Below, one piece after another: positions 4,903 to 57,981 of a DNA stretch of 57,981 bases. The position numbers and the translations under genes are program-made. The DNA lies in IMG/VR virus record IMGVR_UViG_3300019926_000104, positions 1 to 57,981 of that record; one strand, written 5' to 3'. Each line of letters begins with the position of its first letter. The stretch's first letter is position 1. This DNA is from a virus. Below the pieces are notes generated by a model that made no database searches, had not been told where the DNA came from, and saw only the letters and a program-made list of their open reading frames with translations.

Positions 4903-7900
4903 TTATTCCTCATTTGTATTGAATCGTTCCCCTGTGAGCGGGTTCAAGAACTGTGTGACAACCTCTTCTGATGCACCTTGGACGTTACTGGTTTGATCGT
5001 CCTGTTCTTCATCTTCATTTTCATCATCCCTGCGAACCCTGCGATTGGGTGTGTTGGGATTGAAAGGAACGCCTGGGCTACCCGGACTGCCCGGAGAACC
5101 GATACTACTGGGGCTTCCGGGCGAACCGGGGCTACCTGTTGATGAACCGCCGCTTGGTGAACCAGAACCACCGGGTGAGCCGGGGCTTCCGACAGTGCTT
5201 TCATCAAAGGAACTGCCACCACCGAAGCCGCCGCTTGGCGACAGAACAGACGAAATACCGGGGCTACCACCAGATGGGCTTGAGACACTTCCACCACTGC
5301 TGGGGTCGCGCTCTGTCCCACTAGCCGCGCCACTACCAGAGAATCCAAACGTTGGCAGTGGCCGATCAACGGGCTGGCTTGGGCCGTCTCGACGTGACGA
5401 CCGGCCCGCGCCCGCTCGACGTGCGTTTGCATCACCGTCAACAGTCACGCTGGTATCGGCGTCTGCATCAGCATCTCCCCTTCGGGAACCTGCCACGTCT
5501 GCCCGTTCGTCGTCGGCAAATTCCTCAAGGTTGTTTCGCACCTTGTCGGTTCTACTGTCGTCGATGCGCGACTTTGGAGCGGCTGGACGGACAGGCACAC
5601 GCCGACCGCCAACCTCAATGCGGAAATCAGACCCAATGCCCAACTTCCGAGCCGTCTCACCGATGAACCCGCGCCCGCCAATATCGGAGAACTCACTTCC
5701 GGGCGGGGCAACGGCTTCTATCTCCCCGGTGTTCACTTCACTGCGTGGCTTAGTGCGGGCAGTGTCCATATCATCGGTGTCCTGTAGTTCCTCGTCTAGT
5801 TCCTTGTTCGTCCTGGCATCCGGGTTTTCAACGTCCGTTTTGACAGTCTGGACAGTCGGCTTACTCCCCGTGTCCGGTAGCCCTGGACGGAGGGAGAACT
5901 TGGCACTACGTGACTGAATACGGAGGAAGTTAGGCGACACTTCCGGCCCAAGGAAGTTGCCCTGTAGCTCGAACTCTCCGGCAAGGTCTGAATCTGCATC
6001 CGGGCTACTGATACCCTGTGCTGCACGCCCTCTACCCGGCCCCTGTGGTTCTTGGTCTAACGCCTTCTTGAGTACAACACCCTCTTCAACACCTTGTTCC
6101 TGAAACCGCTGCTCCAATTCATCGGGTGTGTTATCATCGGCCTGTTCCCTCACTGCTTGCGCGGGATCGTCTTTGAACTGTTCGGGGTCGTCTGCACCGG
6201 GGAACCGTTCACCTTCGGCCCCGTCCGTTTCTTGAAACTTCTTCACGTCTTCGGACATAACTTCATCTGTAATGTCCGTAGACCCTGCCGTTCGCACCCT
6301 GTCTTTGGTTGCTCTTGATGCACTTCCGGCGGCCCTACCAGCAGCAGAGCCAATAAGTACTTCTGCCCCTATTTGTGTGCCTGCATAGATTGGGCGTTCT
6401 CGAAACTGGTTGACTTGGCTTCGCGTGGTGCTTGTGACAGTGTTACCGACTGTTCCGGCAGTGTCAACAACTCCGAACTCTCCAACCGTCTCAGGCGTGT
6501 TTTGGGCGGCTTCGACGGCTGTATCTGCTAACAGGGTTGCCCCTGCTGTTGCTCCGGCTAACGTTCCCGGCAGGTCGCCAAGCGCCCGCCCAACAGTAGC
6601 GCCCGTTTCTGATCCTGTCTGTTCTCTCACGAACCCGCCAACTTCTTCACCCACTCCAAAGAACTCTTGGCGCTGTTCTATGTCCTGTCTAATCTGTCTC
6701 TCTTCACTGTCGCTCGCTATCCCGGCCTGTTCGCCTTGGGTTAGACTATCCTGTATTTCTTGGTTGGGGTCGTTTAGCCCGACTAGGCCTTGCCCGACAG
6801 AGCCAAAGGTAACAGTCTGCCCAAACACGTCTTCCGTAACTGTCCCGTCCGGGTTTCTGGTTATCTCTTCACTGGTAGTACCTCCGCTTGCTCTTGTAGG
6901 CGCTGTGCTCGTTCTCTGGCGGCTTGGTCCGTTGGGCGTGCCCTGGAAGGTCTGTGCTCTGCGCTGTTGTTCACGCGCCGTACTACGCACGTTCTGGCTA
7001 ACTTCTACGTTCCCGTCCGAATCAACCGAAACATCTTCACCAGTGAAGGATGTGTTTAGTTCTCGCTCTAACTGTCTTTCAACGTTCTCTTGCTGTTGTC
7101 GCTCCGCAATATTTCCGACCCTCTCACGGCCAACAGGCGAGAGTTCAACACGCAGTTCATCACCTTCACGAGTAACCTGTAGGTCTTCTTTGCGAAACTC
7201 TGCCCCTGTCGTCTTGAGTCCACTAACGGCGTCCGTGACCTTGGTGCCTGCAACGTCACTCTCAAGACCTTGTGCCTGTTCTTTGACTAACTCACTCTGT
7301 GCAACATCTTCAAGTTCCCCGGTCTTGGTGGCATCAATATCTTCGGTAGAGTCGTTGGTTGGAGCGTCTGTCTCTGCATCGGGCATGGCGGCTTCCGACC
7401 CTTCAACACCACTAGGTCCAATGCCAGACCCGCTCTGTCGAGTAGGCCCGCTTCCAGTAGAGCCGTCTAACATCTGCTCTTGTTCTTGAGTCGGTTCGGG
7501 CGTGCTATCGCTATCATCGTCGCTTGAACTACTGGAACCGCCGCTTAGATTGTTCGGAACAGAACTACCGGGCCTTGTCCCACCGTCGTCGTCTGAATCG
7601 TCGTCTGAATCGTCGTCTGAATCGTCCGAACTACTGGAACCACCAGATGAACCACTATCAGAGTCGCTATCGTCAAACGGGTTATCGCTATCAAGCGAGG
7701 GTTCATCGGGTAGGTCTGCATCACCTCCGCCGCCTAATGGGTCGCTTGACGTACTGCCCGTAGAGCCGTCTAACAGTTGCTCTTGTTCTTGAGTCGGTTC
7801 GGGCGTGCTATCGCTATCATCGTCGTCTGACCCACCGCTGAGGTTGTTGGGAACACTACTCCCCGGTCTTGTTCCACCATCGTCGTCATCGTCATCCGAT

Positions 7901-7980
7901 GAACTGCTACTATCTCGGTCGTCATTCGTCGGCCCGTCATAGGACCCTCCAGTGAAAGTCGTGCCATCCCAGTCAACCAT
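4903..7980 (-). CDS. 1025-aa highly acidic, Ser/Asp/Gly/Pro-rich, largely disordered protein (structural candidate)
   Basis: Longest ORF in the window. Internal duplication near the N-terminus and SPG-type repeats near the C-terminus. The opposite-strand ORFs here are shadows. Confidence 0.8.
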   Translation of the reverse strand: MVDWDGTTFTGGSYDGPTNDDRDSSSSSDDDDDDGGTRPGSSVPNNLSGGSDDDDSDSTPEPTQEQEQLLDGSTGSTSSDPLGGGGDADLPDEPSLDSDNPFDDSDSDSGSSGGSSSSDDSDDDSDDDSDDDGGTRPGSSVPNNLSGGSSSSSDDDSDSTPEPTQEQEQMLDGSTGSGPTRQSGSGIGPSGVEGSEAAMPDAETDAPTNDSTEDIDATKTGELEDVAQSELVKEQAQGLESDVAGTKVTDAVSGLKTTGAEFRKEDLQVTREGDELRVELSPVGRERVGNIAERQQQENVERQLERELNTSFTGEDVSVDSDGNVEVSQNVRSTAREQQRRAQTFQGTPNGPSRQRTSTAPTRASGGTTSEEITRNPDGTVTEDVFGQTVTFGSVGQGLVGLNDPNQEIQDSLTQGEQAGIASDSEERQIRQDIEQRQEFFGVGEEVGGFVREQTGSETGATVGRALGDLPGTLAGATAGATLLADTAVEAAQNTPETVGEFGVVDTAGTVGNTVTSTTRSQVNQFRERPIYAGTQIGAEVLIGSAAGRAAGSASRATKDRVRTAGSTDITDEVMSEDVKKFQETDGAEGERFPGADDPEQFKDDPAQAVREQADDNTPDELEQRFQEQGVEEGVVLKKALDQEPQGPGRGRAAQGISSPDADSDLAGEFELQGNFLGPEVSPNFLRIQSRSAKFSLRPGLPDTGSKPTVQTVKTDVENPDARTNKELDEELQDTDDMDTARTKPRSEVNTGEIEAVAPPGSEFSDIGGRGFIGETARKLGIGSDFRIEVGGRRVPVRPAAPKSRIDDSRTDKVRNNLEEFADDERADVAGSRRGDADADADTSVTVDGDANARRAGAGRSSRRDGPSQPVDRPLPTFGFSGSGAASGTERDPSSGGSVSSPSGGSPGISSVLSPSGGFGGGSSFDESTVGSPGSPGGSGSPSGGSSTGSPGSPGSPSSIGSPGSPGSPGVPFNPNTPNRRVRRDDENEDEEQDDQTSNVQGASEEVVTQFLNPLTGERFNTNEE
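7458..7825 (-). repeat. Intragenic duplication in the 1025-aa gene (66-nt near-identical cores at 7458..7523 and 7760..7825)
   Basis: The cores differ at 2 positions. At protein level GGTRPGSSVPNNLSGG...STPEPTQEQEQ(L/M)LDGSTGS occurs twice. Confidence 0.8.
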
Positions 7981-8084
7981 TAATCATCGCCTCCTTGTCC
8001 ACTGCCCGACGACCCGCTATCACTGTCGCTACTTGCTTCATCAAAACTTGAGGGGTAGCTAATCCCGCCTTTTTCGTAGGCCAT
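7980..8084 (-). CDS. Acidic microprotein (34 aa), first gene of the minus-strand operon
   Basis: TAATG overlap with the 4903..7980 start; TATA-like atcttttt about 30 nt upstream of the ATG. Confidence 0.35.
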   Translation of the reverse strand: MAYEKGGISYPSSFDEASSDSDSGSSGSGQGGDD

Positions 8085-8125
8085 ACTGTGCTATTCACCA
8101 CACAGTGACAAAAAGATTTGTTCGC

Positions 8126-8464
8126 TCAGAACTCTGGGCCGTCACTACCCGCAAACGGAAGTGAAACCTCGTTTATCTCGCCGCCTACGTCGTCAAAGAC
8201 AAACGGATCATCACCCTCTGTTGGACTCTCTATCTCTTGTGCGAAGGGGAGCACTATCCCGCTTGTCTGGAATAGCTCGGAGTCCTGTCGTTGCTGTTCT
8301 GCCTTGGCTTTGTAGGCTTCGACAACTTCCCGTTCATCGGCGCTTCTAAACGGGTTTGCTCCATCTGGACCGGGTGTTAGCTCCCCTTCGGTCCCCAGTG
8401 GGTCTTGGGTGAATCGAGTTTCGGTAATACCGGGCGTGGTTTGCATCAATGGTGGCAGGTCCAT
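8126..8464 (-). CDS. Hypothetical acidic protein
   Basis: Internal ATG at 8464 preceded by a TATA-like 'acttttac'. The longer upstream extension is Cys/Arg-rich and unlikely to be coding. Confidence 0.5.
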   Translation of the reverse strand: MDLPPLMQTTPGITETRFTQDPLGTEGELTPGPDGANPFRSADEREVVEAYKAKAEQQRQDSELFQTSGIVLPFAQEIESPTEGDDPFVFDDVGGEINEVSLPFAGSDGPEF

Positions 8465-15612: not shown

Positions 15613-15997
15613 GTGGCCCTGCTGTCAGAAGGAACGCGGGCCTGTCGTATCTTGTAGCCGTGAAACCGCTATCATCGACGGCGAAGAATACGATCTAATC
15701 CCCTTCGGAGAAGGCGACAGAGGGCTAACCTACGACGAACGCATAGCACGAAAGAAAGAGGAAATCGCAAACGGCGGTCGTGGCAAATTCAGTGCCGAAT
15801 ACGCCGAACGCGAGCTAGAAGAGTTCAAGAAAAGCACGTCAAAGGAAGAGTACAATAACCGGGCCTGTCACGATTGCGGAACGCCAATGGGTGAAGTACA
15901 CCACCTTGGCTGTGATATGGAGGAATGCCCGAAGTGTGGCGGGCAGTACTTCATTTGCGACTGTCACAGCATCGAGAAAGAAGAACTCTGGGCGTAG
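15605..15997 (+). CDS. Cys-rich zinc-binding protein
   Basis: CC ... C ... CHDCG ... HHLGC ... CPKCG ... CDCH. Confidence 0.55.
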   Translation: MSKWPCCQKERGPVVSCSRETAIIDGEEYDLIPFGEGDRGLTYDERIARKKEEIANGGRGKFSAEYAERELEEFKKSTSKEEYNNRACHDCGTPMGEVHHLGCDMEECPKCGGQYFICDCHSIEKEELWA

Positions 15998-16013
15998 AAC
16001 CTCACCAATTCCA

Positions 16014-17069
16014 ATGAATAAAGTAACCCGACAAGACTTGATTGTAGAGTTCAACAGACTAGCCGAGGAATTAGGCAAGCGGCCTACGCTCTCGGAGTTT
16101 AACGAACATGGAGAGTACAGCCAAACGCCGGTCTACAAGGAATTTGAGTCCTTTGAAGCCCTGAAAGACGCAGCAGGGTTTGAAACCGGCGAGCAGAAGA
16201 TAGACGATGAGACGTTATTAGACGATCTTCGCAGGGTAGCGGGTGTGATTGGCCGGACACCGCCAGTTATGATATATGATGAACACGGAAACCACAATTC
16301 AAAAACTCTCAAAAAACGCTTTGGGAACTGGAATGAAGTACAGAAGGCCGCTGGATTAGAGCCAACAGAACACTCGGAGCACTGGAACGACAACAAGCCA
16401 GAACAATTCACGAAAGAGTACGGTACTGTAGAGGTGAATTGCACATATTGTGGCGACACCAAACAAGTCCCGCCGCATGTGAAAGAGGATAAAGAGCGCC
16501 ATTTCTGCAATTACTCATGCCGTGGTGATTATCTCTCGGAACAGACCGGCGAAGATGCACGAGCTTGGGAAGGCGGGAAGGTGGAAATTACCTGTGAATG
16601 GTGCGAAGATGCGCGAGAAGTGCGACCTTCCGAAGCCGGCAGTTCACGATTCTGTAGCCAAGACTGTATGCTTAAATGGCGCTCTACTGAGTTCGTTGGA
16701 GAGGATCACCACCGATTCAAAGAGAATACAGAAGAAATCTACTACGGGCCGAACTTCACAGAACAGCGCCTAAAGACGCTTGAGCGCGATAACCACCGTT
16801 GCCAAGTGTGCGGCAAGACCAACCAAGAGAACATCAAAGAAGCGACCTGCGGCCTGAATTGCCACCATATACGGAAGTTCAAAGAGTTCGACGGCTACGA
16901 ACAAGCGAACCGGCTTGAAAATCTCGTGATGTTGTGTAGTGGATGCCACCAGCATGTGGAGAACTACACGCTTACCGTGCCTACTGCGCGTTGGCATCGG
17001 CAAGAGGCGAACAAGTCTGTGGTGAGTGATAGCCCAATACAAAGAAATCTGACACTGTATTTGCCGTAG
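16014..17069 (+). CDS. HNH homing endonuclease with two haloarchaeal HNH-associated repeats and zinc fingers
   Basis: Repeats ...YKEFESFEALKDAAGF and ...KKRFGNWNEVQKAAGLE. HNH core CQVCGK ... NCHHI ... N..N.LVMLCSGCHQHVE. Confidence 0.8.
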   Translation: MNKVTRQDLIVEFNRLAEELGKRPTLSEFNEHGEYSQTPVYKEFESFEALKDAAGFETGEQKIDDETLLDDLRRVAGVIGRTPPVMIYDEHGNHNSKTLKKRFGNWNEVQKAAGLEPTEHSEHWNDNKPEQFTKEYGTVEVNCTYCGDTKQVPPHVKEDKERHFCNYSCRGDYLSEQTGEDARAWEGGKVEITCEWCEDAREVRPSEAGSSRFCSQDCMLKWRSTEFVGEDHHRFKENTEEIYYGPNFTEQRLKTLERDNHRCQVCGKTNQENIKEATCGLNCHHIRKFKEFDGYEQANRLENLVMLCSGCHQHVENYTLTVPTARWHRQEANKSVVSDSPIQRNLTLYLP

Positions 17070-20138: not shown

Positions 20139-20273
20139 ATGCCCAGCCAATCAGTTCATATTCCAGAACAGTTGTACGAATACGTGATCACAACAAAGGC
20201 CGATGAACAGTCTACCTCTGCACGAGTGACCGAGCTTGTGCGGAAAGGCAAAGCCAAGGAGGAAACACAATGA
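20139..20273 (+). CDS. RHH-like microprotein (44 aa)
   Basis: SVHIPEQLYEYVITTK ... SARVTELVRKG. The upstream part of ORF 19932 is not protein-like. Confidence 0.4.
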   Translation: MPSQSVHIPEQLYEYVITTKADEQSTSARVTELVRKGKAKEETQ

Positions 20274-20875
20274 GCAAGAACTACGAAGGATGCTACTTCT
20301 GTGACGTAACGAATCCTCACGCGGTCGAGGGGCACCATCTAGTTCCACAGCGGTTCAATGGAACGGACCAACCAGAGAATATGGTGGACCTGTGTGGATC
20401 GTGCCACAATAAGATAGAAGAACTCTACGATGATGCTTTCTACGAGCGTCTTGGTGTGGCGGTCGACGAAATAGAGAACGAAAACATCCACGTCGACTCT
20501 GGGGAACAGGTGGATGCTTCGGACTCTCTGGATCGGAAGATACCACCAACCTCAGAACACATCCTTGTAGAGAAAACGGAAGAACGGGAACATCATCCGA
20601 AAGCAGACGACGGTATGCATTCTACAGTACAGACTGCTGATGCACTTCATGGAAGGGAAGAAAGAGGGCAGAGGCTTCCAGGGGCTAAGGTGATTTGGCC
20701 CAAAGGATACCGGCTACACTGTGGCTACTGCCATACTGTGTATAGTGAAGATGAACACTCCGATATGGCCCGTCACTTGCGGGTTCGGCATGGCATCGAG
20801 AACCCGTATGAAGAGGTTGATACCACCTTCGGAGAAAAGCCAGACGGAATTGACCTACCTACACAGGAACAATGA
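20270..20875 (+). CDS. HNH endonuclease
   Basis: CYFC ... EGHHLVPQ ... ENMVDLCGSCHNKIE. Confidence 0.7.
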   Translation: MSKNYEGCYFCDVTNPHAVEGHHLVPQRFNGTDQPENMVDLCGSCHNKIEELYDDAFYERLGVAVDEIENENIHVDSGEQVDASDSLDRKIPPTSEHILVEKTEEREHHPKADDGMHSTVQTADALHGREERGQRLPGAKVIWPKGYRLHCGYCHTVYSEDEHSDMARHLRVRHGIENPYEEVDTTFGEKPDGIDLPTQEQ

Positions 20876-21120
20876 GCAAAGATTCAGACTACAGTGGTAT
20901 GCCGTCCGGTCGAATTGCGCGTGTAAAGTATTCCATCGGGAATCTCTGGGATTCGTTTGGTCGAACAGACAGCCTCGGCCTTGGAGTGATAATAAACCTC
21001 TCAATGATCGCGTTAGGAGTTATCGTGTTCTACACCACGAGTGGCCTACCCAGTTACGCCGGAGCGGTATGGGCATTGTTTAATTCCTATCCGTTCGTTA
21101 AGTGGGTGTTTGGCCTATGA
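20872..21120 (+). CDS. Small membrane protein (2 TM)
   Basis: Hydrophobic helices; ATGA overlaps. Confidence 0.55.
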   Translation: MSKDSDYSGMPSGRIARVKYSIGNLWDSFGRTDSLGLGVIINLSMIALGVIVFYTTSGLPSYAGAVWALFNSYPFVKWVFGL

Positions 21121-22643
21121 TCGGCCTACTCCTATCGTTCTTGGGAATCTTGGCAAGCCCGTTCGGGATGCTATTCTTCCTGCTTGGAGTTGTGCAATTC
21201 ATCTCCCTGCCGATGATTTCCAGAGTGACGAACTACTTTCACGCATTCTCCCGGTTGCATCTCTGGTTAGGTGCCCGGATGCTCAAGCGTGCCTGTGTGG
21301 TTGTCTCAGAACACGGCGACCTACTCCTAAAGCGTATGTCGCCCGATGATATAGGCACTGAGACTATACAGTTCAACAGTGACACCAAAGAGTTCGAGGA
21401 TCAGAACGAACGGCGTGCTAAGTCTAACTGGATGGGCATACCGTTTGCACTTGCTGATGAAGTACACGGATTCCTGTTCACACCGAAGGACGCTGCATTA
21501 GGCAAACGGAAGTTAGAGGCAGAACAGGATGATGAAATGGTCGTGAAGGCCACGGCCCAAGAACGGCAGATGTACGACGTTCAAGGCTGGGTGCGTGGTG
21601 TGTTGGAGTTCCCGAAAGGCCAGTACGAACTAACTGACCTGAATTATGTCCGGCAGCTCGTTACTGGTAGTGAACGGTCGGAACACCCACAGCGTGTTAA
21701 GTCGTTCTACGAACTCTCCCGTGAACCGTACAACGACGGCCCAAGCACCACGAAATTCATTGCTATCATTATTGCACTGATTGGCCCATTTGCGGCTATC
21801 TGGGTTCTCTCAAGCCAACTTGGGCTAAACACGTCCGGTGCCACCGATAGTGTCTCATTCGGGCTTGCTGTTCTCCTATTCAGTCTGACGCCCGCAAAGA
21901 CGTTCATAGAGAATATTGATTGGAAACGTGTTGTCGTCTCTATTGTCGTTCTTGGGGCGCTTCCGGCGCTGTTCGTTGGTGTCCTACTGCTTACGTCGCC
22001 ATTCTACGCTATTGCACTGTTCGTGATTATGGGCATGGGCTTTTGGTCCGGCCCTATCCTCATTGAAGTGCTAAAACTAAGCGACAAGGTGACAGATAGC
22101 CTCTCAAACATTTTACTCAAATCCGGGCTTTCAGGGTATGAAGAGCCTGTCTTTGAGTACACCAATTCAGGCTATGAGGTTAGAGAGTTCAACAAACTGA
22201 ATGTCGACAAAGATTCTATTGTCTGGCATTCCTTCCTCGGTCGGAAGTTCGGCTTTACGTTCACACCTGAGCCTTCTAACTGGGATATTGACATTCCAGA
22301 TATTGACGATCTCGACAATAGAGCTGTAGCAGACGGAGGGGCAAAAACGAACCTTCCGAGTGGCTATCAGGTTATCCCCGAACGCACACGCGCTGCATAC
22401 GGTGATTTCCTCCCCCGCCGACTGGATAAGTCTAAGTACTATCCAAAGACGGGGATTGCCCTATCGCGTATGAAGAACGTGTCTACGGGCGGGAAAAGCC
22501 ACGGTCGGCTTACTCAGTCCAAAGAAGAGTACGGCGGTAACAGTGGCATTTCCGAACAGTCCATGATGTACATGGTCGTTGGCTGTGGAATGTTCTCATT
22601 CTTGGCCGGGATTGGTGTGTTCATCCTGCCTGCATTCCTCTAA
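21117..22643 (+). CDS. Large polytopic membrane protein
   Basis: 508 aa, with TM clusters at the N-terminus, middle and C-terminus. Confidence 0.7.
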   Translation: MIGLLLSFLGILASPFGMLFFLLGVVQFISLPMISRVTNYFHAFSRLHLWLGARMLKRACVVVSEHGDLLLKRMSPDDIGTETIQFNSDTKEFEDQNERRAKSNWMGIPFALADEVHGFLFTPKDAALGKRKLEAEQDDEMVVKATAQERQMYDVQGWVRGVLEFPKGQYELTDLNYVRQLVTGSERSEHPQRVKSFYELSREPYNDGPSTTKFIAIIIALIGPFAAIWVLSSQLGLNTSGATDSVSFGLAVLLFSLTPAKTFIENIDWKRVVVSIVVLGALPALFVGVLLLTSPFYAIALFVIMGMGFWSGPILIEVLKLSDKVTDSLSNILLKSGLSGYEEPVFEYTNSGYEVREFNKLNVDKDSIVWHSFLGRKFGFTFTPEPSNWDIDIPDIDDLDNRAVADGGAKTNLPSGYQVIPERTRAAYGDFLPRRLDKSKYYPKTGIALSRMKNVSTGGKSHGRLTQSKEEYGGNSGISEQSMMYMVVGCGMFSFLAGIGVFILPAFL

Positions 22644-22645
22644 CC

Positions 22646-23116
22646 ATGATCGGGCTTCGCTCCGCTGGCATGTTCGGGCTAATCCTGTGGTTCTCCGTAG
22701 TCATGGGGCTACTCATGGGTGCAAACGCTGGCTACACCGTTCAAGACGCACAGAACGCTAGTGCATCCTACAACGGAACACACGCACAGATAGCCAACGA
22801 AACCACGAACGTTACCATTGATTTCAACGAGACGAACAAGACCACCTTCGAGAGACAGGTAAACAACGTCACACCGGAGATAGAGACACCGGCAGACCCC
22901 TACATTCAGGACGGTGTACGGTCCTTCACTCGGAATATGGTGCATCTCGTGTTTACGCTCTCGTTTGGGGCGGCTGATGCATCAGCAGAGTTCTTCTATC
23001 ACAACCAGTGGATACCGAAACCGCTTGTCTCTGGTGTGTTACAGGTGGTTGGCTTCGCTCCGGTTGTAGGGGCTGGTGTTCTCCAACTGAGTAAACTAGC
23101 GAGGTTCTGGCAATGA
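22646..23116 (+). CDS. Membrane protein with a dense N-glycosylation sequon cluster
   Basis: Seven N-x-S/T sequons within about 45 aa (NAS, NGT, NET, NVT, NET, NKT, NVT), flanked by TM helices. Confidence 0.6.
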   Translation: MIGLRSAGMFGLILWFSVVMGLLMGANAGYTVQDAQNASASYNGTHAQIANETTNVTIDFNETNKTTFERQVNNVTPEIETPADPYIQDGVRSFTRNMVHLVFTLSFGAADASAEFFYHNQWIPKPLVSGVLQVVGFAPVVGAGVLQLSKLARFWQ

Positions 23117-23334
23117 TAGACAGAAGCCTACTCAAGCAAGCCTTAGTCGTCCTTTCGAGCGCGTGCAGTGGGTTCTATATCGGAGGAAGGTACGTCGGTG
23201 GTATGGCTATCACGGAGTATATGGGACCGAAACCAGCGTGGTTAGGAGAGGCACAGTCTACCATGTGGGCAGTGCTTGGGGTTGCTGTCCTGTGCATCAC
23301 ACTGTGGATCGTCATGGACTACAAAGACCAATGA
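23113..23334 (+). CDS. Small membrane protein (2 TM)
   Basis: Hydrophobic helices. Confidence 0.55.
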   Translation: MIDRSLLKQALVVLSSACSGFYIGGRYVGGMAITEYMGPKPAWLGEAQSTMWAVLGVAVLCITLWIVMDYKDQ

Positions 23335-23708
23335 GTGAAGACAGTACAAACATCGACCTGAAAAGCGTGTCTATAACGCTTGTAGTAGCCCTGGTTGTAG
23401 TGTTCGTGGGTGTGCAAGTTGCCACGACCGTAACAGACGAACAGTTAGAACAGATGGAAGAAGAGGAAATATCGGAAACCTGCATGGGTGTTGCTGGCTG
23501 TGGTACTGGTACATGGGGTCTTATCCCTGTTGCGGGTATCGTGCTTGTCCTGTCCGTTATCATGGTTCACGTCATAAGCCTACGGAAACCCCATTCTAAA
23601 CGCGATTTAGACGACTTGCAGGACGTGAAGAAGCTGTATGTAGAAGGTGAGATAGGCATTCTTGAGTTAGAGGATAGGTTAGACGACGAGATAGACGACG
23701 AACAGTAG
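23331..23708 (+). CDS. Membrane protein with an acidic, SHOCT-like C-terminal helix
   Basis: Two TM helices, then LQDVKKLYVEGEIGILELEDRLD. Confidence 0.5.
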   Translation: MSEDSTNIDLKSVSITLVVALVVVFVGVQVATTVTDEQLEQMEEEEISETCMGVAGCGTGTWGLIPVAGIVLVLSVIMVHVISLRKPHSKRDLDDLQDVKKLYVEGEIGILELEDRLDDEIDDEQ

Positions 23709-23760
23709 TTACCACAACACCAGCACAAGTATTTTGCTTGTTTGGTGCATGTTTACCACT

Positions 23761-24048
23761 ATGGCATCAGCAGAGCCAACCGAAGAGACACTAGAACAGG
23801 TTTCCTACATCATCAGTAGCACATACCGAGAAATGGTTATTGACGACCTTACGGACGGTATGAGCACGCCAGGGAAGATAGCACACAACCAAGACAGTTC
23901 TATTGCACATGTGTCCCGTGCGTTGAATGAAATGCGAGAACGTGACCTTGTGCAACTGATGGTGCCAGAAGAAAGGCAGAAGGGGCGTATCTACGCACTG
24001 ACTGAGAAAGGCGAACAGGCCGGAAAGCACGCCTTGGAGATGAACTAA
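23761..24048 (+). CDS. Winged-helix transcription regulator
   Basis: STPGKIAHNQDSSIAHVSRALNEMRERDLV ... KGRIYALTEKG. Confidence 0.6.
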   Translation: MASAEPTEETLEQVSYIISSTYREMVIDDLTDGMSTPGKIAHNQDSSIAHVSRALNEMRERDLVQLMVPEERQKGRIYALTEKGEQAGKHALEMN

Positions 24049-24908
24049 TGTCACAAATAGCAATTGGCGTCCCGATGTTCTCACGGGAACAGGCGCTACA
24101 AGAACTACTGGAAAGCGTGCCAGAATACGTATCAACCGTCTACATAGCAGATAACGGAGAGAAAGACCACAGAGAACTATACGATCAAGAATATCCGTTC
24201 GACATTGACGTAGAACACCTGCCCTATGATTGTGGGATTGGTCCCTGTAGGCACAACATAGCCGAGCGAGTGACCGAACCCTACCTATGGGTTGGGGATA
24301 GTGACATGGAATTTAGTAGCCCTGATAATCTGCTTCGGCTACAAGAGATATTGGAGGCTAATCCCGACCTTGGCGGTGTCTCTGGCTGGTTGAACGAACA
24401 CAACAGAATCCGCTCCGGGGCAAGAAACCTCGTCGAACTGAATAACACGATCATCAAAACCGTCCCAGACGAACCGGACGTTACCCCAGACCCATACCCG
24501 CACGCACGGTTTGACTTTATCCCACAGGCCGGACTCTTCCGAACAACGGTGTTTCGAGACTATACCTATGATCCAGAGATTTACAACTCTGAGCACCTGG
24601 ATTTCTTCTACGGCCACCACAAAACGACCCACTGGGAATTTGCGTCTACGCCAAGCGTCGTAATCAAGCACAAACGCAACATTGACCCCGAATACCGGGA
24701 ATCACAGCGGGGGAAGAACCACGTTGACTTTGACGTAATGGAAGAAAAATGGGGCTTCAACTCTGCACATCCAGGCCCACGGTCGGATTGGAGTAACACA
24801 CGGGAACGGTCGCCCGGCGAACAGGCATTTGACCTGTTTAGAAGTGTGACACCGGCTTCTGTGTGGGTTCCAGTACGCAACCTTGCCCGGAAAGGAGGGT
24901 TAGGCTAA
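24048..24908 (+). CDS. Family-2 glycosyltransferase
   Basis: IGVPMFSRE ... YIADNG ... GDSDMEF (DxD). Confidence 0.7.
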   Translation: MSQIAIGVPMFSREQALQELLESVPEYVSTVYIADNGEKDHRELYDQEYPFDIDVEHLPYDCGIGPCRHNIAERVTEPYLWVGDSDMEFSSPDNLLRLQEILEANPDLGGVSGWLNEHNRIRSGARNLVELNNTIIKTVPDEPDVTPDPYPHARFDFIPQAGLFRTTVFRDYTYDPEIYNSEHLDFFYGHHKTTHWEFASTPSVVIKHKRNIDPEYRESQRGKNHVDFDVMEEKWGFNSAHPGPRSDWSNTRERSPGEQAFDLFRSVTPASVWVPVRNLARKGGLG

Positions 24909-25876
24909 TGTCCCAAGTTATCGTTCTTGGGTGGGACGCGCTGGATATAGAACTACTAGAGAAATACGGGTTAGCAGACGACTTTGGGGGCGAACAGACC
25001 AAGATAGACACCTACGCGAATCCCGTGATTGACGAACCACACACGCGGGAGCTGTGGCCCTCTATGATTACCGGGCTACATCCAGACGACCACGGAATCC
25101 ACGCTGTGAGTGAAGACGATGGCGTGCAGTGGAACAACCCACTCTTGAATACAGCGTCGACACTGGCGAATGGCCTTGTTCCCAAGCCTGTTCTTAACGC
25201 GATAGGCCGACAACTCCGCTCTAGGGGCGCTGGCTTAGACCAAAAGCAAACGAACTACTACACTGAAAACGGTATTAGCACCGTCTTTGGCCCGTCTGAT
25301 AGGGCTATTTCCATCCCGAACTACGAAACCGAGTATGATAGAACGAACACCTTAGATGCAACGAGAGATACTGTCTGGAAAGACCTACTTGTTGATCGGG
25401 ATGGAACGGAAGGCTTCGACCCCGACATTACCACAGAAGGCATGTACGGCATTTTAGGCGAAGAGGTTGGAAAACGTCTGTCGCATACGATTACGTCTAT
25501 GCAGCAAGGCAACGGCCTTACGTGGTGTTGGTTCGGGTGTCTGGATACAGTGGGACACATGGCCCCGACTGTTGACGCCCCGTTAGAACGGGATTTCTAC
25601 CACGTCGCTGCAAAGGCGACACAGACGGTCAGAGAACTTGCACCGGAAGACAGTACAATCATCTCGGTGAGTGACCACGGCCTACAGGACGGCGAGCACA
25701 CCGACTACGCGACACTGTGTGGCCCCTCGGATGCCTGTGAAACTATCTCTTCTGTGTTCGACATAGCCGAGTGGGTGAAAAGTGAAAACCCAACGTCGAC
25801 GAGTAAGAATCACGGCGTCGGAACAGCAGCAATGCGAGATACCAAAGACCAACTTGAAAAACTCGGCTACGTATGA
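24908..25876 (+). CDS. Alkaline-phosphatase superfamily enzyme (type I phosphodiesterase/nucleotide pyrophosphatase-like)
   Basis: VLGWDALD ... DTVGHMAPT ... VSDHG. Confidence 0.6.
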   Translation: MSQVIVLGWDALDIELLEKYGLADDFGGEQTKIDTYANPVIDEPHTRELWPSMITGLHPDDHGIHAVSEDDGVQWNNPLLNTASTLANGLVPKPVLNAIGRQLRSRGAGLDQKQTNYYTENGISTVFGPSDRAISIPNYETEYDRTNTLDATRDTVWKDLLVDRDGTEGFDPDITTEGMYGILGEEVGKRLSHTITSMQQGNGLTWCWFGCLDTVGHMAPTVDAPLERDFYHVAAKATQTVRELAPEDSTIISVSDHGLQDGEHTDYATLCGPSDACETISSVFDIAEWVKSENPTSTSKNHGVGTAAMRDTKDQLEKLGYV

Positions 25877-26301
25877 CGGCAAACAGATGGTGGGTGAAAG
25901 CCGCCGCTCGGTGGTTAGCTCGGATAGACGGCGTTAAGGGACAAGTCCAAATGGTATCGCTTGCTGTGACCGGCTTTAGCACGTTCTCTATCATGCTACA
26001 GGGCTTCGGGCTTGGTGGCTACGTTCCCTATCTGGGTGTTGTCACTGCATTAGTTGGCGTGCTGTATACGTATCTGTATAATGAGGGCGGAGTTCGGAAT
26101 CAGGTTTCCCGTGATCGGTCGGACTTAGAGACTAATTTCTCTGGCCCAAGCATGTTGATGAATGATACGACAATAGGAGTGGCTATGTTCACCGCTATGA
26201 AGGGCCGACCGCCAACCAAGGACGAACGAGAGATGATAGAGGAAGGAGTTAGGGAACAGTGGGAAGAGTATAGGGACGGTATCGACATTAACGGGGAGTA
26301 G
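25873..26301 (+). CDS. Membrane protein with an acidic C-terminus
   Basis: 2-3 TM helices; ATGA overlap. Confidence 0.55.
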   Translation: MTANRWWVKAAARWLARIDGVKGQVQMVSLAVTGFSTFSIMLQGFGLGGYVPYLGVVTALVGVLYTYLYNEGGVRNQVSRDRSDLETNFSGPSMLMNDTTIGVAMFTAMKGRPPTKDEREMIEEGVREQWEEYRDGIDINGE

Positions 26302-26393: not shown

Positions 26394-27401
26394 TTAGAAT
26401 TTTTCGTTTACGTCCTCGTCGTAAGCCACCATTTGCGCGTTGCCGAATGCATCTCCCTCTAGTCCGAGTTTTCGGCCAACTCTTTTGGTACGGTCGCGGA
26501 ACTCAGATAGTGAAAGGTCGGTATCCTGTCCTTCATTCTGGTAGACGAATGCTATATCTGCACCCCGCGTATCTGCACCGGCTATACCTTCATCCTGTGT
26601 TCGCTGTTGTCTGCGTAAGGCTTTGTCTGAGGGGGCTTCTGGTTCGCTTGTTGGCGCTCGTTCGCCCTCGTTCATGAAGTTACCACCAAGTGCATTGGGC
26701 GACACTGCACCAACACCTCTTGTCACTTCATCTGGGGACGCTGGCACGTCTCTCCCAGCCATTTCAGCCATGAATGCGTCTTCCATAGAGCCACCTGCTG
26801 CGGCTTCTGGGAATGCATCAAACCCACCCGATTGCTTTGCTTGTGACTGTGCATCCGGTTCTGTCGTTCGTGGCTGTTGCTTCTGTTTCAAGTCCTTCGG
26901 GAGAACCTTCGGGTCTTGTGTTGGTGTATCCACGCCGGGGAAATCAAGCCCTGATTTGTTGTTCTTCCACCGTTCAACGTCGGTGGTAATCGGCGCTCGC
27001 TTCTGATCGTCTTGTCTGATTGCTTCTTTTGACCGGCTAAAGGTATCGTTTCGTGCGCGTGCCTTGTCTTGGTCCCCAGCTTCAACTCGGAACTCCCCAA
27101 CAGGATACGTGATACCTGCTGCCGAGACACTGCCGGTTGTATTTCGCTTTGAGACACCGGGATTGCCACCACCGCCGCTAATGGCTTTTCTGGCTCTATC
27201 CCGTGAGATACCGGCTTTGTCTGAAAGTTCATCAGCCGACATATCGGCCACATCTCGTGGGGCCTGAATTGACCGTCTGGTTTGCCCGGCGCTTTTGATT
27301 TTCTTTGCCGTAGCAGGCCCAATACCGTCTATGTCGGTGAATTTGATAGCCGCGCCCTGTGCTTGTCCAACAGCCTTCCGTCTAAAGTCTTCGTCGACCA
27401 T
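26394..27401 (-). CDS. Helix-hairpin-helix (HhH) protein, paralog 1 of a three-member family
   Basis: FTDIDGIGPATAKKIKSAG; shared module ...ITTDVERWKNNKSGLDFPGVDTP. Confidence 0.7.
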   Translation of the reverse strand: MVDEDFRRKAVGQAQGAAIKFTDIDGIGPATAKKIKSAGQTRRSIQAPRDVADMSADELSDKAGISRDRARKAISGGGGNPGVSKRNTTGSVSAAGITYPVGEFRVEAGDQDKARARNDTFSRSKEAIRQDDQKRAPITTDVERWKNNKSGLDFPGVDTPTQDPKVLPKDLKQKQQPRTTEPDAQSQAKQSGGFDAFPEAAAGGSMEDAFMAEMAGRDVPASPDEVTRGVGAVSPNALGGNFMNEGERAPTSEPEAPSDKALRRQQRTQDEGIAGADTRGADIAFVYQNEGQDTDLSLSEFRDRTKRVGRKLGLEGDAFGNAQMVAYDEDVNEKF

Positions 27402-27439
27402 ACCACAAGATTAGGACACAACGACAAAAAGATACGGTG

Positions 27440-28024
27440 CTACAATCCTGGGATACCCATATCGCTGTTATCGTTATCGTCGTCCTCGTCGGAATCGAAC
27501 GGTCGTAATAGCATCGTTGTATCTACGAAACCTTTGTCTTTCTCTTGCCGTCGTGGTTTCCGCGACGGTGTATCAATTCCGGGGAAATCGAAACTATTGG
27601 GGTCTGATTTCCACTTATCCACATCAGTAGTTATCCTTGCCCGTCGCTCTTCATCCTGTTCTTGATTCAGTGCGGGCCTATCTTGGTGGAACTCGTATGC
27701 CTCTTTCCGATCTGCATTTAGTATCCGAAAGTCCCCAACGTTGGAGTTTTTGCTAACGTCCCCAACTCTGGATTGTGATTGTTTCTTGTTCAACCGTTGC
27801 TTTTCTTCTGGCGTGAAGCGCACACGAGCGCCTGCTTCCTTTAGAGCCTCTTTCTGCTTAATGTTGAAAACGAACTTTGCGACACCTTTGTTTCGAGAAA
27901 CCTCACTAACTGTAGGAACGTCGCCTATCTTACTCGTAGGGCGGCTCTTGCGTATTTTCCGCCGGAAATTTTCTGCTGTTGTCTCTCCGATGCCAAAAAC
28001 GTTCGTGATTGGCTGGTCTGCCAT
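27440..28024 (-). CDS. HhH protein, paralog 2
   Basis: VFGIGETTAENF; ...ITTDVDKWKSDPNSFDFPGIDTP. Confidence 0.65.
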   Translation of the reverse strand: MADQPITNVFGIGETTAENFRRKIRKSRPTSKIGDVPTVSEVSRNKGVAKFVFNIKQKEALKEAGARVRFTPEEKQRLNKKQSQSRVGDVSKNSNVGDFRILNADRKEAYEFHQDRPALNQEQDEERRARITTDVDKWKSDPNSFDFPGIDTPSRKPRRQEKDKGFVDTTMLLRPFDSDEDDDNDNSDMGIPGL

Positions 28025-28103
28025 ACCACAACTACTGTGCTATGCGTTCAAAAAACTACGTGCCTACCTAACTACTATATGCGATATTCACCAAACCTTG
28101 TGT

Positions 28104-29372
28104 ATGGTCAAAACACCGCCGAACCCCAGCGACAGAACGCGAAGCCAAATCAACAGGACAACCGAACGTATCTTAGAAGACCCATTCAACCGCCGCGTTG
28201 GTGCTCAGAAAGACGACCTAACCAAGATTGACGGGGTTGGTGAAAAGACCGCCCGAACACTCAGACAGAACGGATTTAGCCGTATCAGAGACGTTGCTGA
28301 TGAACCTGTCCCGAACCTTGCTCAAGTCGACGGGATTAGTGAAGCCAAAGCCGACGATCTGAAAAGTGCGGCACAAACGGCGAACCGTGTAGATTTTGAG
28401 GAACTAACCGATATTGACGGTGTTGGGCCAGGGATAGCAAGAAAACTCAATGCGGCTGGTATTCGTGACCCACACGAACTACGCGGCAAGTCCCAACAGA
28501 CCTTAGCCGCGATTGATGGAATCGGCCCAAAGCGAGCAGCACGTATCCGGGCCGACGTAGAGTATGAAGCCCCAGCAGGTGCGACAGACACCGGCTACAA
28601 CCCGGAAACAAACAGTGGGTCTACTATCTTCCGTGAGTCGCGTGGAACCTCGTTAGAACCGTTTGATGATGCAATTAGTACGAAAACCGAGAACATGAAC
28701 GACGACGGCGTAAAGCCAGCTCCGAGTAACGTCTTTGTGAAAGGCGAAGATAGGCAAGAAGCCATAGCAGAACACGCCGAACGAACGGAAGAATCTCGAC
28801 GGGCAGACGAATCATTCAATGCCCCGATTATGCTGGATAAGAGCACCTGGGAACAGAACAAGGATGAATACGACTACCCCGGTGTTGATACTATCCCACG
28901 GTCGCGCAAGTTAGAGCGGGTGCGTGATGAAGCCTCACGAATCAAAGAAGCCGGGATGCTTGGGAATATCGAAGCAAGCACCGAAGCCACGAACGATTGG
29001 CGAGCGCGTGGGCAGTATTCGCTTGGGAACGTTGGTGTAGATACCAGTTTCCGCCGTTCTGAGGATACGTTAGCCCATGAGTTAGGCCACGCCGTCGACG
29101 ATAGTGCAGACCGACCAAGCGGCGTGGATGAACGAGGAAACGAACAAGAAGAGAGTATCTTTGATGATCCAGTGGTCTTGGAACAGGCCAGAGGGCTATC
29201 AGAACAACGGCGTGGCAAGGAACTTGATTCAGACTACTTAGAGTCTCAGAACGAGGTGTTTGCTGATCTGTATGCAGAAGCCACGATAAACCCACGACGG
29301 GCCAAGAAGGAAGCTCCAAAGGCGTTTCGGGCGTTACAGGATGCAGTGGGACAAGATACCGGATTCTTCTAA
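28104..29372 (+). CDS. Protein with four HhH motifs, the shared family module and a C-terminal HExxH metallopeptidase-like region, paralog 3
   Basis: IDGVGEKTARTL, VDGISEAKADDL, IDGVGPGIARKL, IDGIGPKRAARI; IMLDKSTWEQNKDEYDYPGVDT; AHELGHAVD. Confidence 0.7.
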   Translation: MVKTPPNPSDRTRSQINRTTERILEDPFNRRVGAQKDDLTKIDGVGEKTARTLRQNGFSRIRDVADEPVPNLAQVDGISEAKADDLKSAAQTANRVDFEELTDIDGVGPGIARKLNAAGIRDPHELRGKSQQTLAAIDGIGPKRAARIRADVEYEAPAGATDTGYNPETNSGSTIFRESRGTSLEPFDDAISTKTENMNDDGVKPAPSNVFVKGEDRQEAIAEHAERTEESRRADESFNAPIMLDKSTWEQNKDEYDYPGVDTIPRSRKLERVRDEASRIKEAGMLGNIEASTEATNDWRARGQYSLGNVGVDTSFRRSEDTLAHELGHAVDDSADRPSGVDERGNEQEESIFDDPVVLEQARGLSEQRRGKELDSDYLESQNEVFADLYAEATINPRRAKKEAPKAFRALQDAVGQDTGFF

Positions 29373-29649: not shown

Positions 29650-30159
29650 TCAGTCAAACGTTCTCACCCTGATTGTGTCTGCATCATGCATCCAGATAGC
29701 GTAGCAATACCACGTATCGGAATACTGTGCGGCGTAGAAGCCATTACAGCTGCTACACTCTAGTTCCCCATCAGGCCCGCCGTTGATACCGTGCGAATCG
29801 TGACACATTGGACATTTGCCCATCAACACACCCGGTTTCCCACGAACGGCGTAGTCATTGCTTGAGAGTCGGTCTATTAACGTATCTATCTCATAGCTCT
29901 CATGGTCAAAGCCACAAGTTTCGTTGCGACACTCAAACCGCTCTTGCACACGAATCATCCGAATATCGCACTCTGGACATGGATACTCTAAATAGTCCAT
30001 CAGCGTGTTAGAACAGGACTGACAATACCAGTAGTCGCGTGGATCGTGCCGTGATTCAGTCTGTTTGAACCACTCGATTGTTCCACAGTACGGGCAGCGG
30101 TCTTGTTCAAACTCTGGGATGTACTCTCGTGCGTCGGTGTAGTCTGCTAACTCAGTCAT
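29650..30159 (-). CDS. Multi-zinc-ribbon protein
   Basis: Six CxxC-type pairs (CPYCG, CQSC, CPEC, CRNETC, CPMC, CSSC). Confidence 0.6.
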   Translation of the reverse strand: MTELADYTDAREYIPEFEQDRCPYCGTIEWFKQTESRHDPRDYWYCQSCSNTLMDYLEYPCPECDIRMIRVQERFECRNETCGFDHESYEIDTLIDRLSSNDYAVRGKPGVLMGKCPMCHDSHGINGGPDGELECSSCNGFYAAQYSDTWYCYAIWMHDADTIRVRTFD

Positions 30160-30703
30160 TGATTTCTAACCACTCTCTTGCTTTCTGAATGTAGTTTCTA
30201 TGGCTTTCACGGTACTCTAATGCCTCTTGGCAGATTTCGGGATACTCGTCTTTGGGAACGTCCGGCGTCCCCAGATAGGCGATATGCTCACGGTAGACCA
30301 AATCCGGCGGCATACGCGCCATGGTTTTGATAGAACAGTATTCCTCGGACGTTAGCGGGTGGTCTGCATCCTGTTTTGTATTCTCTATATAGAGTGTAAT
30401 ATGCATCAACTCGTGGAATATCGTCTGATACTCCGTGGTTGCTGATTCGTAATTCAGGTAGATCAACTGATTGTACGGGTCGGCCATGCCATACGGTTCG
30501 CCATGCCAGGAACAGTCTTCATGGGTGACAGCGACTGTAATGGTGTATTCCGCAAGTTCTGGGAAGTGTTCAAGAGCCGTTTTGATGTTCGTCTTTACCC
30601 CAGCAAGGCCGGTAACACTCTTGCTGTCTTCGTACTCTTCGACGATGTGTTTCTCGAAGGATTCTAACAGCCGGAAATTCCCTGTTTGGACTAGTTCGCT
30701 CAT
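30152..30703 (-). CDS. Putative zinc metallopeptidase (HExxH)
   Basis: TIFHELMHITLY. Confidence 0.5.
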   Translation of the reverse strand: MSELVQTGNFRLLESFEKHIVEEYEDSKSVTGLAGVKTNIKTALEHFPELAEYTITVAVTHEDCSWHGEPYGMADPYNQLIYLNYESATTEYQTIFHELMHITLYIENTKQDADHPLTSEEYCSIKTMARMPPDLVYREHIAYLGTPDVPKDEYPEICQEALEYRESHRNYIQKAREWLEIND

Positions 30704-57176: not shown

Positions 57177-57278
57177 ACGCTTATTTCTTGTGCAAGCGAC
57201 TAAAGTTTTGGTAGAAGTTGTGGGCCTATGCAAAGTATAATAAGTATGCAGTGTGAACAGGGTAGTGTAACACAGTCT

Positions 57279-57587: not shown

Positions 57588-57981
57588 ATGTCGAACGAGG
57601 AAACACAATACAGCGTCATTGACGAAGTCGAACAGCTAAACAAACAGTTCCAGTCCGAAGCGTCCTACGGTGGCGTCTCGCTGAACGGGATTGCTGGCTT
57701 CCACAGCCTGTTCAACCACGACGCTGGTATCAACTTCGCCGGCCACACAGCCCTCCACGCGGCGCTCGATGAGGTGCTGATGGAAGTCGCGCTGGACCCG
57801 GATATTGTCGAACAGAACCACGGCGAGGTGACGCCAGAGGCAATGGCAGAGGATCTGAAAGAACAACTCACGCAGTTCACACAGATTGGGGAGCCGTTCG
57901 CCCACCGACTCTCCCAAGAGTTCCAAGGCAAGCTACAAGGCTACGAATCCGACCTACAGGACCGCGCCGATACGGGAGGTA
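57588..57981 (+). CDS. Hypothetical acidic protein, open at the window end; continues through the overlap to TGA 111..113
   Basis: ATG 57588 with no stop before the window end. Confidence 0.6.
   Translation, partial: MSNEETQYSVIDEVEQLNKQFQSEASYGGVSLNGIAGFHSLFNHDAGINFAGHTALHAALDEVLMEVALDPDIVEQNHGEVTPEAMAEDLKEQLTQFTQIGEPFAHRLSQEFQGKLQGYESDLQDRADTGG
57883..57981 (+). repeat. Terminal overlap copy 2 (identical to 1..99)
   Basis: Base-by-base identity read directly from both window ends. Confidence 0.95.

Follow-up and report, generated by a model that had tools for sequence, protein, structure and literature searches.

Bacterial plasmids and phages are thought to establish themselves with the help of proteins that join a DNA-binding domain to a zinc-dependent protease. 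ArdC and the zincins of polyvalent proteins are of this kind: they are encoded by mobile elements, combine an N-terminal DNA-binding domain with a C-terminal HExxH...E zincin and have been proposed to act with or on incoming DNA. The zincin metallopeptidase is the commonest domain of polyvalent proteins and accompanies about 70% of the ArdC-N DNA-binding domains (Iyer et al., 2017; PMC5512222). Two further types of zinc protease invite comparison, namely the gluzincins of the lethal factor/PPEP-1 (Zmp1) type (MEROPS M34; Pfam ATLF), with an HExxH motif, a Glu ligand that a Tyr precedes by a few residues and a helix reading E-x-F-A-[DE], and the SprT/Wss1/Spartan proteases, which are brought to DNA by a DNA-binding part. 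Here, we describe three adjacent genes, called A, B and C (Table 1), in a DNA stretch of 57,981 nucleotides that is catalogued as IMG/VR virus record IMGVR_UViG_3300019926_000104 (positions 1 to 57,981; hereafter the window). All three encode one and the same module, which in A and C is preceded by helix-hairpin-helix (HhH) DNA-binding units and in C is followed by a predicted protease. The arrangement follows a known theme, in which a DNA-binder of a mobile element is fused to a zincin, and is built around a previously undescribed domain.

An earlier interpretation of this DNA, made without database searches (the sequence-only reading), had proposed the three open reading frames (ORFs), and these are present exactly at the positions and on the strands it gave; the peptides it quoted, APITTDVERWKNNKSGLDFPGVDTP, ARITTDVDKWKSDPNSFDFPGIDTP, APIMLDKSTWEQNKDEYDYPGVDTIP and AHELGHAVD, are all found in the translations. 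The coordinates of the individual parts were re-translated from the sequence and checked. A and B are arranged in tandem on the minus strand with 38 nt between them, and C is divergent from B across a spacer of 79 nt. A longer ORF for C with a TTG start (from 27741) was ruled out, since it overlaps B and the homologs begin at the ATG. In pairwise BLASTP comparisons A matched B at 2e-15 and C at 3e-10, and B matched C at 1e-7; a profile of the shared module matched all three ORFs at 1e-26 to 6e-37. A, B and C are thus real paralogs, and old ones. Recent duplication is ruled out by the identity of about 28% among them and by the fact that likeness at the DNA level is confined to the DFPGxDTP codons. 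The proteins are, moreover, widely conserved elsewhere: at least 132 homologs were found for A and 62 besides itself for C, nearly all of the latter from metagenome assemblies, and short proteins like B, of about 190 aa, are likewise known from elsewhere.

The shared block (about 60-85 aa) forms a domain in its own right, one that can be repeated, and is not just a piece of the protease fold. It had been described as a conserved 55-aa block that could not be assigned to a family; the conservation and the lack of assignment were borne out, no known domain mapping to it, but the length was not, as the block covers about 85 aa in A and B, from GSVSAAGI/GDFxV to DTPTxxPxxxPKD. Alignment of the protease form with the A/B forms yielded the consensus [G-D-F-x-V strand]-helix-R-S-x-x-A-x-x-x-D-x3-(R/N)-A-P-[IV]-T-x-D-x3-W-x2-N-x4-D-[FY]-P-G-[VI]-D-T-[PI], flanked in the A/B form by GSVSAAGI before and P-x3-P-K-D after. 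No model covering the module is present in Pfam, NCBIfam or PADLOC, and PHROGs gave no significant match to A, B, C or the tested module-only proteins. When the module profile was run against 1.84 billion cluster representatives, 701 proteins were matched at E<=1e-3 and 310 at E<=1e-10, the 701 being clusters at 50% identity and a lower bound. These proteins come from metagenomes and from two cultured Halobacteria, and the loci that were opened are haloarchaeal-type mobile elements.

The module occurs singly or in two to three tandem copies per protein, and the majority of the 297 members that were classified carry no protease. The architectures comprise HhH units, module and a variable tail (A-like), proteins of about 190 aa with HhH, module and an acidic tail (B-like), module plus protease, stand-alone modules of 78-130 aa, and two to three tandem modules behind a different N-terminal domain. 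In an alignment of 61 C-type sequences reaching down to about 28% identity, to which all conservation counts for C refer, the module residues R227, D235, N239, W249, D257, P259, V261, D262 and T263 are invariant (61/61). Since the same module residues are invariant in forms with and without a protease, we infer that they serve an external ligand and not the protease in cis; the module would act in the docking to, or recognition of, one common external partner. AlphaFold predicts the same secondary structure for it in C and in A, a strand or beta-hairpin followed by three short helices, with a predicted local distance difference test score (pLDDT) of 93-96 in C and of 65-87 in A. A Foldseek search with the model of A matched the HhH part only and returned nothing for the module or for the C-terminal helical bundle.

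HhH motifs had been attributed to all three proteins. For A and C this was confirmed by Pfam HHH_5, which matches A at 5.7e-8 (one (HhH)2 unit) and C at 1.2e-25 (two units, i.e., four HhH motifs), but B retains a degenerate remnant only: it gave no significant Pfam HhH match, and its N-terminus (ITNVFGIGETTAENF) alone aligns to the first HhH of A. (HhH)2 is a DNA-binding fold that contacts the backbone without reading the base sequence. The HhH parts of A and C have structural matches to the N-terminal domain of RadA/Rad51 and to NusA AR2; the Foldseek match of the A unit to the RadA N-terminal domain has an identity of 37-39%, and the best PDB sequence match of the C unit is the HhH N-terminus of Haloarcula L32e (1.3e-12). 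Homologs of C have anywhere from 0 to 4 N-terminal HhH units but always the module and the HExxH domain.

The C-terminal part of C is predicted to be a gluzincin of the lethal factor/PPEP-1 kind, and is termed here lethal-factor-like rather than an M34 member, because C stays below every Pfam peptidase threshold. In the AlphaFold2 model computed from the 61 sequences (pLDDT 90.6, predicted template modelling score 0.85), HELGH (325-329) lies in a helix formed by residues 319-334 and E384-D388 in a second one formed by residues 382-395. H325, E326, G328, H329, E384, A387, P397 and R398 are conserved in 61/61 sequences and D388 in 58/61. Y378 is present in 46/61; a Tyr within 12 aa upstream of E384 is found in 52/61, the other nine having Phe or no Tyr, and one C-type subclade has Phe in place of the Tyr. 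Foldseek against the PDB placed anthrax lethal factor first (4pks, E 3e-4, probability 0.95). For C. difficile PPEP-1/Zmp1 (5a0p, 6r5b) the target-normalised template modelling (TM) score was 0.47-0.49 over 179-190 of about 195 residues, a moderate likeness, and the structural neighbours together cover residues of about 210-415 of C. Neighbours in BFVD (E 2.7e-3 to 0.1) were MuF-like minor capsid proteins, a phage 'Lethal factor', polyvalent-protein fragments and a 1048-aa HVTV-1 protein. The best lethal-factor-type sequence match in the PDB is the catalytic core 2l0r, which at an E-value of about 0.13-0.14 is not significant alone; its alignments to the C family run from HE-x-GHAVDD through the E-x-F-A-[DE] helix to K-x-APK-x-F. 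The ExFAD helix of the family aligns with the EFFAE helix of lethal factor, in which a Tyr likewise stands a few residues upstream. Pfam ATLF (PF07737) did not match C itself and matched 2/22 relatives below threshold (best E 0.0023).

The combination of four HhH motifs with a real zincin domain in C, as suggested by the sequence-only reading, is therefore upheld by the two HHH_5 units and by the HExxH motif and downstream Glu, which are invariant in 61/61 sequences; a putative third zinc ligand (E384, in the ExxxD helix) is at hand, and the fold is supported by the confident AlphaFold model and the matches to lethal factor and PPEP-1. The proposed likeness to SprT/Wss1 did not hold up. No SprT-like or WLM Pfam match to C was obtained at E<=1, the third ligand would be a Glu in an ExxxD helix, an invariant third His is lacking and the structural neighbours are lethal factor and PPEP-1, so that membership of C in the SprT/Wss1 group was ruled out. 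Only the concept of a zinc protease tethered to DNA is shared with SprT/Wss1/Spartan, and the only ORF that is weakly SprT-like is that at 30152-30703 (0.11). Lethal factor, for its part, provides the best structural neighbours and shares with C the signatures HE-x-GHAVDD and K-x-APK-x-F; unlike this secreted toxin, however, C is cytoplasmic, archaeal, encoded by a mobile element, fused to HhH units and the module, and without any PA-binding or secretion apparatus context. ArdC and the zincins of polyvalent proteins, with their order of domains, their mobile-element origin, the BFVD neighbourhood and their proposed role, would be a closer functional analogy for C than SprT/Wss1. Still, C has HhH units instead of ArdC-N and an archaeal host, and in contrast to the giant, multidomain polyvalent proteins it is small and of three parts; neither the module nor the protease-less paralogs have a counterpart there.

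C-type proteins end in G-[FY]-[FL], with G420 conserved in 57/61 sequences. A reading of the C-terminal G-F-F as a PIP box was ruled out, its spacing being unlike Qxx[LIVM]xx[FY][FY].

The two ends of the window overlap exactly over 99 bp (1-99 = 57883-57981); therefore, the contig is complete and circular (or terminally redundant), with a length of about 57.9 kb. The encoded proteome is acidic, and the MCM protein is about 40% identical to MCMs of haloarchaeal viruses and plasmids. The window is a haloarchaeal mobile element, which may be a virus or a plasmid. It has many genes in common with a 67-kb contig (L001/L002) and a 60.8-kb contig (L007). Three metagenomic contigs were examined, these two clear relatives and the 21.5-kb contig L004, and each of them carries at least three module genes including a protease form, which argues that the trio is old. 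The protease profile was never met without a module directly upstream. Module genes also occur apart from the protease: some loci have none within 20 kb, and module-only genes with no protease nearby are found in Natronomonas aquatica F2-12 and in an integrated element of Natrinema ejinorense. N. aquatica F2-12 was the only match in a scan of species-representative genomes. Its 28.8-kb contig (NZ_JAHLKM010000030.1; L003/L005), labelled cov_326, has GT2, ParA-like, immunoglobulin (Ig)-like and A-type genes in common with the window and may be a relative, in multiple copies or actively replicating, whose host can be cultured. On L004, a divergent paralog with module and HExxH (7236-8405; E 7e-10 to C) lies directly upstream of the C-type gene; its module is degenerate (..HPNRMDVKGIDT), and an HhH-like DIEGVG is located at its extreme C-terminus.

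The reading that we prefer, if tentatively, is that A, B and C form a conserved DNA-riding protein set of this circular haloarchaeal element of about 58 kb, in which the module docks and C proteolyses DNA-associated proteins. The HhH units would keep the proteins on the DNA of the element in the high-salt cytoplasm, and the invariant surface of the module would bind the common external partner. C, as an active endopeptidase, would cleave proteins met on or near that DNA, candidate substrates being host chromatin or defence proteins or the module-bearing paralogs of the element itself. A and B would be protease-less members occupying the same partner and the same DNA. By analogy, the action of C would resemble that of ArdC and of the polyvalent-protein zincins that travel with invading DNA.

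Several observations speak against this interpretation. The module of A is predicted with moderate confidence only. All Pfam peptidase matches of C and its relatives are below threshold (M91 0.0058, ATLF 0.0023, M78 0.013, M90 0.22), and C matches neither MPTase-PolyVal (PF18818) nor ArdC. The Foldseek E-values are modest for both the PDB (3e-4) and BFVD (2.7e-3), and the TM scores do not exceed about 0.25 once the whole query is used for normalisation. None of the three SNJ1-like viruses with VP2 (SNJ1, HJIV-1 and NVIV-1) has the module. No capsid, portal, terminase or packaging ATPase gene was recognised when the large ORFs of the window were compared with Pfam and PHROGs, in PDB sequence searches or when SNJ1 proteins were searched against the window, and the same holds for the related contigs that were examined. 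Pattern scans of IMG/VR with C-type and A-type profiles gave no confirmed relatives, and DNA and protein searches with the region, A, C and a 513-aa neighbour found no match among INPHARED phages or PLSDB plasmids. Since capsid, portal and terminase were not recognised and the family was not found in these three collections, co-delivery of the proteins with the DNA is speculative.

A link to virus particles is nevertheless provided by proteins with two to three modules (L007 11095-12030; P0185, P0186, P0189), whose N-terminal domain of about 130-180 aa is homologous to the N-terminus of the structural protein VP2 of SNJ1 (Simuloviridae). In tblastn searches this VP2-N domain matched the first ~176 residues of SNJ1 VP2 (locus L010 8501-9610) at 5e-15 (183 aa aligned, 37% identity). 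Further matches of the domain are to the corresponding 'putative viral structural proteins' of HJIV-1 and NVIV-1 and to phrog_22825 (1.1e-11), and a PDB profile search with it gave no match. One such protein (L007 11095-12030) adjoins an A-type gene in the 60.8-kb relative of the window. The motif G[LF]ExFGGGxRENxSL[F], which follows a disordered acidic tail, is found at the C-terminus of VP2-N-type members and of one HhH A-type protein (P0089) and resembles the SNJ1 VP2 end EGLGQFGARRSD..LEDFE; like the multi-module proteins, VP2 combines its N-terminal domain with a C-terminal G-L-x-Q-F-G...L..F tail, but it has no module, HhH or protease. Such a recurrent C-terminal sequence may be a short motif for docking, though not one of the PIP-box type. 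Indirect evidence of this kind suggests that some module proteins could be particle components; in the window itself, searches with SNJ1 proteins found neither a VP2-N protein nor capsid or ATPase genes like those of SNJ1. Examples of the C-terminal motif were taken from P0089, P0186, P0196 and P0244, with window A 26394-26480 looked at alongside. An F, Y or W is present in the last three residues of 52% of the module-family members vs 31% of the window ORFs.

From here, the preferred reading could be widened to a new class of 'genome-escort' proteins of haloarchaeal viruses and plasmids, in which swappable heads (HhH, VP2-N) and payloads (the protease, or acidic tails with a terminal aromatic motif) would all use the module to dock to a single hub and would be delivered with the DNA, the protease clearing host chromatin or defence proteins off the genome as it comes in. 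Such proteins would be an archaeal counterpart of ArdC and polyvalent proteins, adapted to salt and made from unrelated parts. The hub would be part of the particle or portal, or else a host protein associated with DNA. As a whole, we regard this wider proposal as unlikely.

A rival account, to which we also assign only a minor share of the probability, takes A, B and C for virion-internal cargo or pilot proteins with a maturation protease. All three would be packaged, the module or the C-terminal tails serving as signal for incorporation or docking, and C would process cargo in the particle or after ejection; the account overlaps with the preferred reading, but the primary role is here virion assembly and delivery. 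The C-terminal motif common to VP2-N-type and HhH-type members and its likeness to the end of SNJ1 VP2 fit such a role, as do the MuF-like minor capsid and internal proteins among the BFVD neighbours of the protease and the Natronomonas A-type gene, which closes an operon with a large Ig-like protein homologous to window 54900-57233. A PHROGs search with this operon yielded nothing informative. What counts against it is that the virion and packaging genes listed above were recognised neither in the window nor in the related contigs, that the family was not found in IMG/VR or in any isolated virus, and that the module is absent from the SNJ1-like viruses.

The divergent transcription of B and C and the start context common to A and B would also suit a switch of the ImmA/ImmR or IrrE/DdrO type, with A and B as DNA-bound regulators or nucleoid-like proteins that C recognises through the module and cleaves, thereby switching the state of the element. 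An integrase is present, so that integrated and free states are possible, the protease always occurs alongside non-protease module paralogs (in three other protease-bearing contigs that were examined), and weak matches to Peptidase_M78 (IrrE-like) were obtained for 4/22 C-type members. However, a fold that contacts the DNA backbone without reading the sequence is unusual for repressors; the numerous module proteins differ in their tails, include forms with tandem modules and often have no protease nearby, as in the Natrinema provirus; and the fold of the protease is lethal-factor-like and not M78-like. We consider such a switch to be quite unlikely.

The position of the module, always directly before the protease domain, raises the alternative of an intramolecular chaperone or inhibitor, i.e., a prodomain of the PepSY/FTP type that would keep C latent, with stand-alone and tandem copies inhibiting in trans. 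PepSY-type prodomains are also found alone and in tandem, the pLDDT of the module is higher in C than in A, and it is conceivable in principle that an 'aspartate switch' to zinc is formed by its invariant Asp residues. This alternative is rendered improbable by the fact that most module proteins are not linked to a protease, which in some loci is missing within 20 kb, and by the fusions to DNA-binding and VP2-N domains, which are not expected of a pure protease inhibitor. Lastly, lethal factor itself contains an inactive duplicate of its catalytic domain that is used for docking, and one C-type subclade swaps Tyr for Phe, but that the HExxH domain is an inactive relic or scaffold in a trio of structural DNA-coating proteins is very improbable given that H325, E326, H329 and E384 (61/61) and D388 (58/61) are retained down to about 28% identity, the pattern of an active enzyme.

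Haloarchaeal mobile elements consist largely of unannotated genes, and a family of at least 701 clusters is now tied to one undescribed domain, which is a candidate for a new Pfam family. Two further features are linked to this domain, namely an intact lethal-factor-type protease on a predicted HhH tether and the head domain that a known virion protein carries. Should the protease act on host proteins bound to DNA, this would be, as far as we know, the first archaeal case of a DNA-binder-plus-zincin and would offer a handle on how such elements enter or take over haloarchaeal cells. Circular, module-bearing elements of about 58-67 kb are, furthermore, unrecognised by the current virus and plasmid catalogues.

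Table 1. Genes A, B and C, their parts and spacers (window coordinates), and the module genes of three metagenomic contigs.
Feature	Position	Strand	Description
Gene A	26394..27401	-	335 aa; (HhH)2, shared module, disordered linker, C-terminal helical bundle
A (HhH)2 unit	27180..27341	-	residues 21-74; Pfam HHH_5; pLDDT 86-93
A module	26883..27137	-	residues 89-173 (TGSVSAAGI...GEFRV...RAPITTD..W..N...DFPGVDTPT..P...PKD); profile 2.8e-36
A C-terminal helical domain	26400..26573	-	residues 277-334; AlphaFold pLDDT ~90; conserved in close A-type homologs
A-B spacer	27402..27439	.	T-rich box ~25 nt upstream of the ATG of A; start context CTTGTGGTATGG; putative promoter
Gene B	27440..28024	-	194 aa; degenerate HhH remnant, shared module, short acidic tail
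B module	27533..27772	-	residues 85-164; profile 1e-26
B/C divergent intergenic region	28025..28103	.	A/T-rich TATA-like boxes ~25 nt upstream of each ATG; putative promoters
Gene C	28104..29372	+	422 aa; N-terminal helix, 2 x (HhH)2, shared module, predicted lethal-factor-like gluzincin domain, G-F-F tail
C four HhH motifs (two HHH_5 units)	28203..28553	+	residues 34-150; Pfam HHH_5 in two stretches, HHH in three stretches
C module	28710..28919	+	residues 203-272 (NVFV...R227...D235..NAP...W249..N...DYPGVDTIP); profile 2.7e-27
C zincin catalytic domain (predicted)	28899..29348	+	residues 266-415; backing helix, three strands, HExxH helix, Glu helix, APKxF helix
C HELGH zinc-binding/catalytic motif	29076..29090	+	H325, E326, H329; invariant 61/61
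C Y378 and E384-V-F-A-D388	29235..29267	+	proposed catalytic Tyr, third zinc ligand Glu, ExxxD signature
67-kb contig (L001/L002), module genes			protease form; 399-aa HhH-module protein; A-type
60.8-kb contig (L007), module genes			protease form; A-type; two-module protein immediately downstream; P0305 elsewhere on the contig
L004 (21.5 kb, carries C-type homolog), module genes			two protease forms (one divergent); 204-aa module protein

The surroundings of the start codons of A and B are alike, both reading (C/G)TTGTGGTATGG with 0 and 1 mismatch to CTTGTGGTATGG (window 27398-27409 and 28021-28032, minus strand). Each of the two genes has a T-rich box about 25 nt upstream, and a similar CTTGTGTATGG is found near the start of C. 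The start context is not element-wide, as 8 matches at <=2 mismatches were counted in comparison with 4.2 expected. Promoter and terminator scans of the region stayed at background level, the sigma-70 scan being uninformative for archaea.

Apart from the trio and the MCM gene, the window encodes PCNA, a ParA-like ATPase, an integrase, Hjc, methylases, HNH endonucleases, a GT2 glycosyltransferase and a phosphodiesterase-like protein; neither tRNA genes nor Rfam families were found in it. The HNH endonuclease genes are located at 15891-17069 and 20270-20875, one of them with homing-endonuclease-associated repeats and a zf-FCS finger, and the methylase genes as well as numerous small zinc-ribbon ORFs are dispersed over the element. 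A conserved block adjoins the A-type gene in the window (21102-26301) and in the relatives L002, L006 and L007. It contains a protein of about 510 aa, whose counterpart in the 67-kb relative is 61% identical, along with small ORFs, glycosyltransferases and a membrane protein of 142 aa (25873-26301). The version of the relatives adds a signal-peptide-peptidase-like gene, and the contents of the block suggest a glycosylation or envelope module.

The PADLOC defence models gave no match for A, B, C, one multi-module protein or the HExxH ORF that neighbours the trio. This ORF (30152-30703, minus strand) lies two genes downstream of C and encodes 183 aa with an HELMH motif. Next to the SprT-like match mentioned above, it matches the zincin families Peptidase_M78 (0.01) and MPTase-PolyVal (0.23), all below threshold. 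It is kept in the 67-kb and 60.8-kb relatives with 51-54% identity and may be a second small metallopeptidase of the element.

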